A stretch of 32,000 nt of DNA from Candidatus Tremblayella phenacoccinincola (GCF_009805595.3 NZ_VMQO03000001.1:55911-87910), one strand, 5' to 3'. Shown: positions 2,123 through 13,636, counted from the stretch's first letter. Notes: generated from the letters alone by a model not told the origin. Numbers and translations are program-made.

Positions 2123-2150
2123 AATCCTTTTAAGCGAGAGCTAGTAGTAT

Positions 2151-2567
2151 TTGTATTATATATATTGCTTAGCATTCCAAATAATACCTGGTATAACAAC
2201 AGCAATAGGTTCTACCATAGGAATACCATTAACTCATAGAAACTACTCTAATAATATAGCTTTTACAACAGGGTCTATATCCTATAAAAACAAACCTAAC
2301 TGGAATCTAGAACTAAATAAAAAGCAAACAATAATAATGTATATGTATGCAAGTAATATAACTAAGCTAAAAGAAAAGCTATTAAAAAGTAGCTTCTCAA
2401 ATAAAACTCCAATAGCAATAATTACATCAAGCACTAATAAAAACCAAAAGATAATAATAAGCAACATAAAAAGCATAGAAAGCTTATCAAATAATAATAC
2501 AACACCCTCTATATTGATAATAGGAAATATAATAAAGCTATATAGAGATATTACTACATTCAATTAA
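2151..2567 (+). pseudogene. cysG: C-terminal about 135 codons of siroheme synthase / uroporphyrinogen-III C-methyltransferase; N-terminal part absent
   Basis: IIPGITTAIGSTIGIPLTHRNYSNNIAFTTG...TIIMYM...PIAIITSST..NQKII...TPSILIIGNIIKL aligns with the last third of E. coli CysG (VVPGITAASG..GIPLTHRDYAQSV..TGH...LVFYMG...PALIIVGRVVAL). The ORF begins at a TTG directly after a stop, 30 nt past the rplT stop. The SAM-binding N-terminal half is missing. Confidence 0.65.
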
Positions 2568-2650
2568 TAAGAGCATAAGTCCCTTCTAAACCTATAACAA
2601 TCCCCCCCCCCTTCTCTAACAGCTAACACCTAAAAAGGAAAAGAGCTAGA

Positions 2651-2755
2651 ATGTCTTTATGGGACGGCCGCTTCAAAGAAAAGCTAAACATAATGTTTGA
2701 ATACTTTAACAACTCCTTAAAAACCGATTATAGGTTCATAACGAAATATAGCTAA
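2651..2755 (+). pseudogene. argH: 34-codon N-terminal stub of argininosuccinate lyase
   Basis: My translation is MSLWDGRFKEKLNIMFEYFNNSLKTDYRFITKYS*. Compare the ArgH N-terminus M.LWGGRF......F..FN.SL.FDYRL. It is too short for the ORF track and is cut off before the tRNA genes. Confidence 0.6.
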
Positions 2756-2786
2756 CCATAAGTCTATTGCATTATAATTAGGAAAG

Positions 2787-2860
2787 CAGGGATAGAGAGT
2801 CTCGAACTCCCAACAGCTGGTTTTGGAGACCAGTACTCTGCCAAGTTGAGTTATATCCCT
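2787..2860 (-). tRNA. trpT: tRNA-Trp (anticodon CCA)
   Basis: The reverse complement AGGGATATAACTCAACTTGGCAGAGTACTGGTCTCCAAAACCAGCTGTTGGGAGTTCGAGACTCTCTATCCCTG folds as a 74-nt cloverleaf. The anticodon loop is CTCCAAA. It is close to E. coli tRNA-Trp. Confidence 0.9.
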
Positions 2861-2862
2861 TG

Positions 2863-2936
2863 CGGTGCGGGCGAGTTTCGAACTCGCCACCTTCGGCGTG
2901 ACAAACCGATATTCTAACCAACTGAACTACCGCACC
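2863..2936 (-). tRNA. aspT: tRNA-Asp (anticodon GUC)
   Basis: The reverse complement GGTGCGGTAGTTCAGTTGGTTAGAATATCGGTTTGTCACGCCGAAGGTGGCGAGTTCGAAACTCGCCCGCACCG folds as a cloverleaf with anticodon loop TTGTCAC. Confidence 0.9.
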
Positions 2937-3212
2937 TATAGACTTAAGCAGTTTCTTACTCTAGTCAAAGGACTAGTTTATAAACCGAATTAAGCAGAAT
3001 CTATTATGTGGTTCTAACTGGTATTATATTGTTGTTAAGAAGAATGCTTTTTCTAGAAGGCTGGTTGGATTCTAGAATGGTTAGCAGGACAAGCTATTAC
3101 CAGTTCTAGGAAAGGCTACTCCTCCTACCAACCACCCACATATACAATACTACCCCCACATAGCTAAACCTCTTGTAGTTCCTTAAAGAAAAACTAATCT
3201 AATAAACCCATA

Positions 3213-11027: not shown

Positions 11028-11074
11028 CTAAGCTGTCCATATCCATAAACCTAACCTAAAAGGAGATAACCTAA

Positions 11075-11602
11075 ATGAATGCTAAAGACCTTAAAGAGGA
11101 AGTATCTAAAGCTAAACCAACAACTAATGAAGAAGAAAAGATAAGGAAGTTAGAAGAGGAGCTAAACAACATAAAAGCCCAAGAAAAAGATAATATGCTG
11201 CGTATAAAAGCGGAGTTGGAAAATGTTAGAAAGCGTACTAAAAAAGATATTGAAAAAGCACATAAGCTTGCTCTAGAAGCCTTTACTGCTGACTTACTAC
11301 CAGCTCTTGATAACTTAGAACGAGCCCTAGCTACTATAGATAGGTCTAATCAAGAGCTAAAAGCAACTATGGAAGGCATAGAGTTAACATTAAAAGCATT
11401 ATTAGATATCACTCAAAGGTTTGGTATAAATGTAATTGATGAAGCAAATGTAGCTTTTAATCCAAATATACATCAAGCAATGTGTGTATTAGATTCAGCT
11501 GAAAGCATGTCTAATAAGGTTATTACAGTACTTCAAAAAGGGTATACTCTAAACGGAAAGCTAATACGTCCGGCAATGGTAACTGTATCTAAAGGAAAAT
11601 AG
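11075..11602 (+). CDS. grpE: nucleotide exchange factor GrpE
   Basis: RIKAELENVRKRTKKDIEKAHKLALE...MEGIELTLK...NPNIHQAM...LQKGYTLNGKLIRPAMVTVSK is close to E. coli GrpE. AAAGGAGA sits 8 nt upstream of the start. Confidence 0.92.
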   Translation: MNAKDLKEEVSKAKPTTNEEEKIRKLEEELNNIKAQEKDNMLRIKAELENVRKRTKKDIEKAHKLALEAFTADLLPALDNLERALATIDRSNQELKATMEGIELTLKALLDITQRFGINVIDEANVAFNPNIHQAMCVLDSAESMSNKVITVLQKGYTLNGKLIRPAMVTVSKGK

Positions 11603-11658
11603 ATGTCTGGTTCTTCTGCTATATTAATCTCTATTAACTACCCAACTGGAAACCCCAA

Positions 11659-13389
11659 ATGTATAAACTGAAAAGCCAGATTCGAAGACTATATGAACAG
11701 CTAAACCATTGGGACTTTCTTTATTATATAAAAAGAACCCCAGAAGTTTCAGATAATGAGTATGACTGTGCTAGGTCTGAGTTAATATATCTTGAAAAGA
11801 GTTACCCAGGCCTTTGTATTAAATCTAGAAGTGACCTATTTAAAAAGAAGAAACATATATTACCTATGCTTTCATTAAGAAGTTCTTATAATAAAGAAGA
11901 TATCTTATTATTTGATAAACGAATTCGAAATAAGCTTAAAGTTAAAGCTGATGTTGTATATTATTGTGAACTTAAACTTGATGGAATAGCTGTTAGCTTA
12001 TTATATAAAAAAGGTTGCTTAGTTAGAGGCTTAACTCGAGGTGATGGAATATATGGTGAGGATGTCACTTCTAATGCTCTTGTAATAGATTCTATCCCTA
12101 AACGACTAATAAATGATGGGTCTCTGCCTTATGTATTAGAATTACGTGGGGAGTTAGTTATGGCTAACTATGGGTTTAACTTATTAAATAAATTCTCTAA
12201 TTATAAATGCAGATATTATTCCACTCCACGAAATGCAGCTTCTGGTTCTTTACGTCAGTTAGACCCAAAAGTCACAGCTAAACGGCCTTTAGCTTTTTAT
12301 TGTTATGAAGGTCATTCTATATTACCAGGAAATAGTTCTTTATCTATTAGCCATAATGATAACTTAAATAATATAAGAAGTTGGGGAGTTCCAATATGTG
12401 AAGTTAAACGGGTTTGTGTAGGTATTAAAGAAGTTCTTAGGTTTTATGAAGAAGTAAAACAGATAAGGTTTATGTTAGGTTTTTCTATTGATGGTGTAGC
12501 TGTTAAAGTAGATTCTATAGCTCTTCAGAAGAAGCTTGGGTTTTCTACTAAAGCTCCTAAATGGTCTATAGTATATAAGTTCTCATCTGAAGAGAAAATG
12601 ACTAAGCTGAATAAGGTTGAGTTTAGGGTTGGCAGGACTGGAATATTAACTCCGATAGCTAACTTTAGACCTGTTTCTATTTCTGGTGTTACTATTAGAA
12701 ACGCTAGCTTACATAATATTAACTTCATTAACCGACTAGGTATTATGGCTAATGATACAATCATAGTTCGCCGTTCTGGAAATATTATTCCACAAGTTGT
12801 TAGCTGTATTCCTAAATATCGTTCATCTAATGCTAAACTGCTTGTCTTTCCTTTATATTGTCCTTCTTGTCATGCTTTTTTGAATAAGGTCTTAAATAAA
12901 GATAAGCTATATTTATACTGCCCTTCTGGTTTATCTTGTCCTAGTCAACTAAAAGCATCACTAAAACACTTTGTATCAAAATATGCAATGAATATTATTG
13001 GTTTAGGTGATAATATAATTAGTAAGTTAGTTGACTATGGTTTAGCTTTAAGTTGTTATGGTTTATATTATCTAAAAGAAAAGGACTTTATGAAAGCAAG
13101 TCTTATCGGGTTAAAGCAATCACAAAAGTTAGTATTACGAATAAGCAAATCAAAAAGGGTTCCTTTTTCTCGGTTTATTTACTCTCTTGGAATCTTAAAG
13201 GTAGGCAGGTTAACAGCTTTAACTATTTCCTCAGTATATAAGTCCTTGAATAGTCTTTTATTAGCTGATATTGTTTCTTTAGCTAGTATACCAAGTGTTA
13301 GTAAAAAGGCAGCAAGTAACATATGCGCATATATAAGAAACCATAATAATATAATAAGAGACTTAGTTAACTTATTAGATATCTTTTAG
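11659..13389 (+). CDS. ligA: NAD-dependent DNA ligase, lacking the C-terminal BRCT domain
   Basis: [14 protein letters not shown] (KxDG), the Zn finger CPSCHAFL...[12 protein letters not shown], and an HhH region. The ORF ends at the point where E. coli LigA continues into BRCT. Confidence 0.92.
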
Positions 13390-13422
13390 TTGGGGGGGGG
13401 AGGGGAGGAGCTGTTAGTTTAA

Positions 13423-13505
13423 GATGAGGTGTCCGAGTGGTTTAAGGAGTATGTTTGGAAGACATATATACGTATGTATCGAGGGTTCGAATCCCTCTCT
13501 CATCG
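13423..13505 (+). tRNA. tRNA-Ser (anticodon GGA), long variable arm
   Basis: GATGAGGTGTCCGAGTGGTTTAAGGAGTATGTTTGGAAGACATATATACGTATGTATCGAGGGTTCGAATCCCTCTCTCATCG. Acceptor GATGAGG/TCTCATC, anticodon loop TTGGAAG, variable stem ATAC/GTAT, T-arm GAGGG-TTCGAAT-CCCTC. Confidence 0.85.
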
Positions 13506-13508
13506 GAT

Positions 13509-13531
13509 GCATCCGTAGCTCAGTTGGTTAG
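13509..13531 (+). pseudogene. 5' fragment (acceptor plus D-arm) of a tRNA-Arg(ACG)-like gene
   Basis: GCATCCGTAGCTCAGTTGGTTAG matches the first ~23 nt of E. coli argV-type tRNA (GCATCCGTAGCTCAGCTGGATAG). I could find no anticodon arm, T-arm or 3' acceptor downstream. Confidence 0.45.
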
Positions 13532-13636
13532 GTAGGATTGGTAGCTTCATCTTTCACTAATCATGAACATCTATATTGGGGGGGAACTACGCATTAACCG
13601 CTATGTATTCGTATGGGCTTCTCAGGTTTATAATAA

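Follow-up and report, generated by a model that had tools for sequence, protein, structure and literature searches.

The 32,000-nucleotide stretch NZ_VMQO03000001.1:55911-87910 (assembly GCF_009805595.3), listed as Candidatus Tremblayella phenacoccinincola and called the window below, was analyzed over its whole length. We are highly confident that it is part of the chimeric beta-gammaproteobacterial genome of the mealybug symbiont Candidatus Tremblaya phenacola, and that positions 2151–13531 form one block derived from a Sodalis-allied gammaproteobacterium. A preliminary description had proposed that two ancestries, or two long-separated mutational histories, are joined here on one replicon, with an extremely AT-rich, enteric-style block set into a GC-richer, non-enteric backbone. 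Protein affiliations and base composition both bore this proposal out.

Four proteins (IleS, TrpE, IscS and SucA) were placed taxonomically, by best hits and not by trees. Beyond two Tremblaya entries, every named match of IleS in the top 120 belonged to Enterobacterales. The closest were the Sodalis-allied mealybug symbionts Gullanella, Doolittlea and Hoaglandella and several Sodalis, at 46–49% identity, the top named non-Tremblaya matches being Gullanella, Sodalis sp., Pantoea edessiphila, Doolittlea, Hoaglandella and Sodalis endolongispinus. The named top matches of TrpE were all Betaproteobacteria (Trinickia, Burkholderia, Caballeronia, Janthinobacterium, Cupriavidus, Mycoavidus and others), as were those of IscS (Burkholderiales, Accumulibacter, Propionivibrio and Curvibacter). 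When all matches were scored by BLASTP together with the Escherichia coli K-12 orthologue, the latter ranked 16th of 121 for IleS and 121st of 121 for both TrpE and IscS. A pattern-based scan with SucA returned T. phenacola strain PPER at 83% identity, followed by Burkholderiales and Arenicella at 36–42%, with no Enterobacterales, and both SucA and SucB scored higher against Burkholderiales/Arenicella loci than against E. coli. Neither the window's own genome nor the non-chimeric T. phenacola PAVE nor T. princeps was among the matches of the SucA scan, and PAVE was likewise absent from those of TrpE and IscS. For the rluC-type protein, the nearest relative with a name came from the betaproteobacterium Kinetoplastibacterium, which is weak evidence; the closest RluC relatives, P0362 and P0369, lay on small symbiont-like contigs among unrelated neighbours and were of no help with the junction. 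By best hits, then, beta- and gamma-affiliated genes occur on one contig, the class differing between IleS and TrpE/IscS rather than being shared by all, and the gamma part is Sodalis-allied as judged from one protein, IleS. In the published tree of the chimeric genome of strain PSOL the gamma part is sister to Sodalis (PMC11014885). The tables of the same paper label gltX, ileS, rpsT, cysK, argI and ligA gamma in both PSOL and PPER, and aroC, infC, rplT, rpmF, trpG, thrB, thrC, hom, rpsR, rpsF, sucA and iscU beta. Missing from those origin tables are grpE and yebC, which we assigned to the gamma part by position and by GC (guanine plus cytosine) content at third codon positions (GC3).

The GC content of the full window was 35.3%. 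In 1-kb sliding windows it was 0.27–0.30 at about 3500–11000 and 0.32–0.33 at 11000–13500, the remaining windows being mostly at 0.35–0.42, with a dip to 0.33–0.34 at 1501–3000 that straddles the left edge of the block. GC3 was bimodal: the nine coding units of the block (cysG', gltX, ileS, rpsT, cysK, argI, yebC, grpE and ligA, within 2151–13389) gave 0.159–0.224 (mean 0.20) and the 20 flank genes 0.287–0.396 (mean 0.34), so that the two ranges are disjoint (Mann-Whitney p = 2.4e-5). The best two-change-point likelihood fit to raw GC was 3301..13391, with a log-likelihood gain of 87.6 compared with at most 12.7 in block shuffles. The support interval of the right change point (13350–13401) includes the ligA stop at 13389. 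The left change point fell at 3138–3469, near the start of gltX and not at 2123, because the 645-nt spacer with two tRNA genes has 39.7% GC; the cysG' open reading frame (ORF) at 2151–2567 has only 25% GC, and the left edge given in the preliminary description is therefore right on gene content.

The difference is neither a strand effect nor an effect of gene class. Genes lie on both strands in the block and in the flanks alike; among ribosomal-protein genes, GC3 was 0.16 for rpsT in the block versus 0.32–0.40 for rplT, rpsR, rpsF and rplI in the flanks, and among biosynthetic genes it was 0.18–0.20 for cysK and argI versus 0.32–0.37 for trpE, thrC and hom. The clustering of codon usage, proposed earlier as a check, gave a divided answer. 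On the first principal component eight of the nine block genes lay above every flank gene, the short cysG' being the exception, whereas Ward clustering at k=2 split off only ileS, argI and ligA and did not cleanly recover block and flank; the two-cluster cut is uninformative because short genes are too noisy, which leaves the ordering on the first component. Similarly, the block proteins had been described as saturated in K, N, I and Y, unlike those of the flanks. The FYMINK content was indeed higher in the block (0.33–0.51 versus 0.29–0.39), but the ranges overlap. Both GC3 classes are reproduced by the PPER orthologues, with 0.18–0.24 for block genes and 0.32–0.35 for flank genes, the 49-codon rpmF apart. 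Four-fold degenerate sites were 75–85% identical between the window and PPER in genes with at least 50 such sites, so the synonymous divergence is modest, and a signature that persists in this way fits incomplete amelioration.

To establish whose genome this is, the window was compared with both published chimeric strains. The IleS, TrpE and IscS ORFs matched NCBI proteins of Candidatus Tremblaya phenacola at 100%, and an exact sequence look-up with CysG', CysK, YebC, GrpE, LigA, RluC and AcnA' returned proteins of the same species in every case; all ten are encoded on one 87,910-bp contig, within the consecutive accessions KAH0998333–KAH0998365. The taxid of the species leads to Betaproteobacteria incertae sedis. 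The orthologues in PPER (GCA_002682985.1) showed 76–87% protein identity (IleS 76%, TrpE 82%, IscS 87%), with PPER contig12 collinear with window positions 4376–18328 and contig15 with 19504–31894, at about 84–87% nucleotide identity. Divergence of this size marks the window as a T. phenacola strain other than PPER, and the earlier guess, "PPER or a relative", came out on the side of a relative. The window gene order is exactly that of PSOL peg56 to peg88, for which the published numbering is 56 aroC, 57 infC, 58 rplT, 60 gltX, 61 ileS, 62 rpsT, 63 cysK, 64 argI, 67 ligA, 69 rpmF, 70 acnA, 71 trpG, 72 trpE, 74 thrB2, 75 thrC, 76 hom, 77–79 rplI, rpsR and rpsF, 81 sucB, 82 sucA, 87 iscS and 88 iscU; the PSOL genome (34.8% GC) has a total of 221 kb, divided among seven contigs (PMC11014885). 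From gene order and GC, the window is most likely PSOL itself, whose host is the cotton mealybug Phenacoccus solenopsis, or else a strain nearly identical to it. A Logan contig from run SRR13503347 (L001) carries the same block (window 6377–13493) and is 98.65% identical to it, pointing to a second population or strain of this symbiont. Its end at 13493 lies in the gene for tRNA-Ser and so inside the right junction interval.

The genes were named by an NCBIfam profile scan of 30 ORFs, in which every large ORF received a name, and the tRNAs by ARAGORN and Rfam. The core of the gamma-type block (3213–13389, both strands, GC3 0.16–0.22) consists of gltX (3213–4631, plus strand), ileS (4985–7903, minus), rpsT (8002–8265, plus), cysK (8269–9234, plus), argI for ornithine carbamoyltransferase (9231 to about 10235, minus), yebC (10305–11027, plus), grpE (11075–11602, plus) and ligA (11659–13389, plus); yebC and grpE are placed in it by composition and position. 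To its left, tRNA-Trp (2786–2860) and tRNA-Asp (2862–2936) lie on the minus strand, in the order Asp then Trp on their own strand, and were found by both tRNA searches. To its right, tRNA-Ser(GGA) (13423–13505, plus) is followed directly by a 26-nt 5' remnant of a tRNA-Arg gene (13506–13531, plus).

Several of these elements had been called relics of enterobacterial style, and most of the likenesses were confirmed. A single alignment spans both genes of the Asp-Trp pair in 5423 of 5426 E. coli genomes, in which the pair lies after the 23S and 5S rRNA and before hdfR, as expected of the proposed rrn-distal arrangement. The rpsT and ileS genes are divergent neighbours, as described before and as in E. 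coli, where they are separated by yaaY and ribF, both lacking here. The truncated tRNA noted beside the right end of the block is the tRNA-Arg stub, which shares 25 of 26 positions with the 5' end of E. coli tRNA-Arg and loses similarity beyond; PPER keeps the tRNA-Ser without this remnant. The proposed likeness of the Ser-Arg pair to serV-argV was not upheld: the anticodon of the tRNA-Ser is GGA, which we take to be the serW/serX type in E. coli, serV presumably carrying GCU, and the E. coli matches spanned the tRNA-Ser alone. GrpE, ornithine carbamoyltransferase and the CysG tail had also been said to align closely with their E. coli counterparts, an overstatement given identities of only 48%, 53% and 29%. 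The other block proteins showed 55% (CysK), 45% (GltX and IleS), 42% (RpsT), 40% (LigA) and 31% (YebC). A conserved gltX-ligA-cysK synteny, these genes lying within 14 kb in E. coli, was considered and dropped, as order and orientation differ in the window.

Two block genes show signs of reduction in one or both strains. LigA, with 576 aa in PSOL and 578 aa in PPER, extends to position 572 of the 664-position profile in either strain, the missing C-terminal part presumably being the BRCT domain. In the window yebC is intact and its product highly rich in K, N and I; its score of 127 bits falls short of the 243 required by NCBIfam, and a 22-nt stretch is repeated exactly within the gene. The corresponding region of PPER (L003 7123–7587) has two small ORFs only, and yebC seems to be lost or in the course of being lost there.

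The tRNA genes near both ends of the block, and the fact that the 32-kb window has a single such block, would also fit an ordinary island acquired by horizontal gene transfer, that is, 11 kb of enterobacterial DNA inserted beside tRNA genes in a pure Tremblaya genome that never underwent a fusion. We consider this highly improbable. The cargo is core housekeeping (two aminoacyl-tRNA synthetases, ribosomal protein S20, GrpE and DNA ligase), not accessory, and no integrase, transposase or other mobility family was found by NCBIfam among the 30 ORFs scanned. No direct-repeat family pairs the ends of the block, and the tRNA-Arg stub has no partner at the left end. Moreover, published whole-genome counts put the gamma genes at 45–46%, in many blocks, including nearly all tRNA synthetases (PMC11014885 and PMC5664097); for PSOL the figures are 40% beta and 45% gamma (PMC11014885).

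The right junction interval (13390–13636) extends from ligA to rluC, which has beta-type composition. After the ligA stop at 13389 it contains a run of nine G residues, the tRNA-Ser gene, the tRNA-Arg stub and a second run of seven G residues, and rluC starts at 13637. The gene order in PPER contig12 is ileS...ligA, tRNA-Ser, rluC, rpmF, acnA', trpG, trpE and thrB. As the junction is common to the window and to the independent PPER assembly, it should be older than the split of the strains, so that the ligA–rluC join would predate the divergence of PSOL and PPER, and it is no assembly artefact.

The left junction has a different character. The ORF of cysG', the first gamma-type element (2151–2567, plus, GC3 0.21), starts 28 nt past the rplT stop, in agreement with the earlier statement that the block begins within 30 nt of that stop at a truncated cysG; it is a 3' fragment of a uroporphyrinogen-III methyltransferase gene, matching CysG profile positions 324–449 of 450. 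Its residues 8–138 are identical (131/131) to the C-terminal half of the intact 264-aa uroporphyrinogen-III methyltransferase KAH0998199, encoded on a separate 30,677-bp contig of the same assembly, and homology to the intact gene begins at 2170. A Logan contig from another sequencing run (L092) carries an intact cysG, the same C-run spacer and the same argH' piece; it is 98.2% identical to window 2170–2769 and then ends. The truncated cysG thus represents one copy of a dispersed repeat, 600 bp or more in length (2170–2769, plus strand) and composed of the cysG 3' end, a spacer with a run of ten C residues and an argH 5' fragment. The latter contains a 34-codon ORF (2651–2755, plus) whose product is identical to the N-terminus of E. 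coli ArgH at 14 of 28 positions. As proteins, the two copies within this assembly are identical (131/131), while a copy from another sample shows 2 residue differences. The left edge of the repeat is 48 nt from rplT, and no similarity was found between the two repeat loci immediately to the left of the repeat. In PPER, rplT (00081) and gltX (00127) are not adjacent by the published numbering (PMC11014885), so the left join may have arisen later than the right one and be specific to the PSOL lineage.

These features bear on whether the mosaic could be an assembly chimera, in which reads of a co-resident Tremblaya and of a separate Sodalis-like bacterium were misjoined. Repeats are the places where assemblers misjoin, and a repeat that is also found after an intact cysG on another contig has its edge 48 nt from the left join. 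No contig across the left join was found in an independent assembly by exact-protein look-ups with IleS, IscU, GltX, RpmI and RplT and with the NCBI IleS entry, and L001 stops inside the right junction interval. Against this, the right junction is also present in PPER, sequenced independently from another host species, within 14 kb that are collinear at about 84% identity; a misjoin would not be inherited with divergence, and the chimera is thus excluded for the right junction. For the left junction it is unlikely. The dissimilarity of the two loci immediately left of the repeat makes an overlap-based misjoin unlikely, the PacBio and Illumina hybrid assembly of PSOL lists one gene, peg59, between rplT (peg58) and gltX (peg60), and the authors of that assembly use its synteny with PPER to argue against misassembly (PMC11014885). 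Taken as an explanation of the whole mosaic, misassembly has very little probability left.

It is conceivable, if rather doubtful, that the left beta/gamma join is the edge of the dispersed repeat and not an ancestral scar of the fusion; the identity of the two copies in this assembly would then point either to a recent rearrangement in the PSOL lineage or to ongoing gene conversion or recombination between copies. If so, recombination at the repeat could give alternative genome isomers or subgenomic molecules, which would explain why such genomes have failed to assemble into one circle. As far as checked, this repeat is the only element of the window that looks unpublished.

The notion that local differences in mutation or selection (strand, expression or conservation) within a single lineage produced the step can practically be set aside, for although regional GC variation is possible in reduced symbiont genomes and the two-cluster Ward cut did not cleanly separate block from flank, the best-hit class changes exactly where GC3 changes, the GC3 ranges stay disjoint with the same strands and functional classes in both compartments, and PPER shows the same split.

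The fusion origin of the window suggests the following course of events. The genome of a Sodalis-allied gammaproteobacterium would have fused with that of the betaproteobacterium Tremblaya. Redundant genes would then have been lost. The copies retained here would be of gamma origin for gltX, ileS, rpsT, cysK, argI, grpE and ligA and of beta origin for trpEG, sucAB, the threonine and isc genes and the majority of the genes for ribosomal proteins. Recombination would also have shuffled the blocks, leaving as scars cysG', argH', the tRNA-Arg stub and the orphaned rrn-distal tRNA pair. The compositional step would be the memory of two mutational histories, the gamma partner having been very AT-rich already and the Tremblaya part being GC-richer and still decaying. 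For comparison, GC contents of 42% for PAVE, 58% for Tremblaya princeps and 42–62% for non-chimeric Tremblaya in general are on record, with 29–31% for some Sodalis-allied partners. The fusion and the retained GC and codon signature of the gamma genes were published for PPER in 2018 (PMC5664097) and for PSOL in 2024 (PMC11014885), where the beta blocks of PSOL were also found syntenic with the non-chimeric T. phenacola PAVE; the fusion in this species was noted as well in bioRxiv 10.1101/2024.10.23.619971. The chimeric mosaic is thus already known and published for two host species, as the preliminary description had suspected in calling it not novel in itself. The step in composition, the class to which four proteins belong, the organism's identity and the presence of the right junction in PPER were shown directly; the preference for whole-genome fusion over piecemeal transfer and the direction of compositional decay we infer from the literature or by reasoning.

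Several points weigh against this account. The taxonomic placement covers only four proteins, by best hits, and the scan with one of them, SucA, also gave Arenicella, a gammaproteobacterium, at an identity similar to that of Burkholderiales. The assignments of grpE, yebC, rluC and the tRNAs come from composition and position, with one named betaproteobacterial relative in addition for rluC. The assignment to PSOL was made by gene order and GC, without a sequence comparison to the published PSOL files. The left junction has no support from an independent assembly and coincides with the edge of a repeat. Finally, the window alone cannot separate a whole-genome fusion from gene transfer on a very large scale.

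Our results disagree with the published gene-origin labels for a few genes. In Table S5 of PMC11014885, trpE (peg72), iscS (peg87) and acnA (peg70) of PSOL are labelled gamma and their PPER orthologues beta. In the window, by contrast, the named best hits of TrpE and IscS are all betaproteobacterial, and trpE, iscS and acnA have GC3 of the backbone type. Best hits, the rank of the E. coli orthologue and GC3 together support a beta origin of trpE and iscS; for acnA the gamma label is doubtful on composition alone. The tables also label sucB gamma in PPER and beta in PSOL (PMC11014885); here sucB has backbone GC3, and its scores against non-enteric loci exceed that against E. coli. The tryptophan pathway, whose division into beta trpEG and gamma trpDCBA was first described for PPER (PMC5664097), would still be split between the two ancestries after relabelling, with trpEG beta and trpDCBA gamma. 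These two or three corrections, in the tryptophan and Fe-S pathways, slightly change the published division of labour between beta and gamma genes.

The backbone on the left (1–2122, plus strand, GC3 0.32–0.35) contains aroC, which runs off the window start and ends at 920, its frame being open to base 3, infC (1100–1558), rpmI (1551–1751, recognized as an ORF) and rplT (1742–2122), all on the plus strand; aroC, infC and rplT are the three labelled beta in PMC11014885. The backbone on the right (13637–32000, both strands, GC3 0.29–0.40) has the order rluC, rpmF, acnA', trpG, trpE, thrB, thrC, hom, rplI, rpsR, rpsF, sucB, sucA, putative rbfA, infB, iscS, iscU and an iscA-like gene. Within it, the rluC-type pseudouridine synthase gene starts at 13637, rpmF lies at 14623–14772, the acnA fragment at 14872–15888 (profile positions about 190–366), trpE at 16464–17936, infB at 27632–29149 and iscS at 29972–31147; the putative rbfA is a small ORF that had no family hit and was named by position. 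The non-enteric solutions expected in the flanks were found in the right one, namely a kinase-fold ThrB, a monofunctional hom and a stand-alone trpG, whereas E. coli has a fused trpD. The acnA' ORF spans about 180 of about 890 profile positions and its product is 25% identical to E. coli AcnA. Between PSOL and PPER, AcnA' has the lowest protein identity in the set (70%), with 85% identity at four-fold sites, which points to a pseudogene in decay that both strains have kept as an ORF. The infB product (505 aa) is short at the N-terminus and matches positions 81–577 of the 587-position IF-2 core model, any N-terminal extension being absent.

The spacers of the window have features of their own. 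Several have 0.36–0.45 GC and so exceed the third positions of codons, an unusual situation in an AT-rich reduced genome. Ten runs of at least six G or C residues start at 2602, 4964, 10241, 13392, 13578, 23434, 27296, 29694, 29765 and 29832. Eight of them are intergenic; the run at 10241–10248 lies within the over-extended 5' end of the argI ORF, and that at 27296–27305 among the final codons of the putative rbfA. A perfect 57-nt direct repeat occurs in the aroC-infC spacer (996–1052) and in the infB-iscS spacer (29613–29669), 28.6 kb apart and bracketing the gamma block, and a 36-nt piece of it is also present in the infB-iscS spacer of PPER (L004 2430–2465). A 66-nt direct repeat, 98% identical between its copies, lies after thrB/thrC (19432–19497) and after the iscA-like gene (31935–32000, running off the window) and has an internal purine/pyrimidine palindrome (GAGAGGGGAGAGAG...CTCTCTCCTCTCC). 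A coincidence of PPER contig ends with this repeat was considered and dropped, the repeat being absent from the ends of PPER contig15. The infB-iscS spacer (29150–29971) has 822 nt, compared with about 190 nt in PPER, and 43% GC; its first half is purine-rich (GGAGG/GAAGA) and its second half pyrimidine-rich (CCTTCC), and it contains a 22-nt inverted repeat that is 95% complementary (29289–29310 and 29812–29833). A 159-aa ORF within it had no family hit in NCBIfam. Tandem arrays occur in the spacers flanking thrB, with about 5 copies of a 13-nt unit at 18036–18100 and about 6 copies of a 9-nt unit at 19229–19287.

The stable fusion, within an insect cell, of genomes from two bacterial classes is among the most extreme outcomes of symbiosis and bears on the origin of organelle-like genomes and of chimeric lineages, but this significance belongs to the publications of 2018 and 2024. 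What the present analysis adds is a base-level account of one block and its two junctions, evidence that the right junction is older than the PSOL/PPER split, the repeat at the left junction as a possible substrate of recombination, and the corrections of gene-origin labels.

The closest known system is the PSOL chimeric genome (Bai et al. 2024, ISME J, PMC11014885), with which the window shares species label, gene order and overall GC. Apart from the labels disputed above, our beta and gamma calls are the same as those of that paper for aroC, infC, rplT, gltX, ileS, rpsT, cysK, argI, ligA, trpG, thrB, thrC, hom, rplI, rpsR, rpsF, sucA, sucB and iscU. The PPER "beta-gammaproteobacterium collage" (Gil et al. 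2018, ISME J), as summarized in PMC5664097, has the same beta-gamma fusion, the same Sodalis-allied gamma part and the same GC and codon signature; it differs from the window in that yebC is apparently broken into small ORFs and the tRNA-Arg stub is gone. The nested symbioses of T. princeps with a gammaproteobacterium (Moranella, Gullanella, Doolittlea or Hoaglandella) involve the same two complementing partners, and IleS of the window is closest to these symbionts. However, in the nested systems the genomes reside in separate cells, whereas in the window both kinds of gene are on one contig. A classical tRNA-associated genomic island is likewise a block of deviant composition with tRNA genes near its ends; unlike such an island, the block described here has no mobility genes and no flanking direct repeats, and it carries an essential housekeeping cargo.

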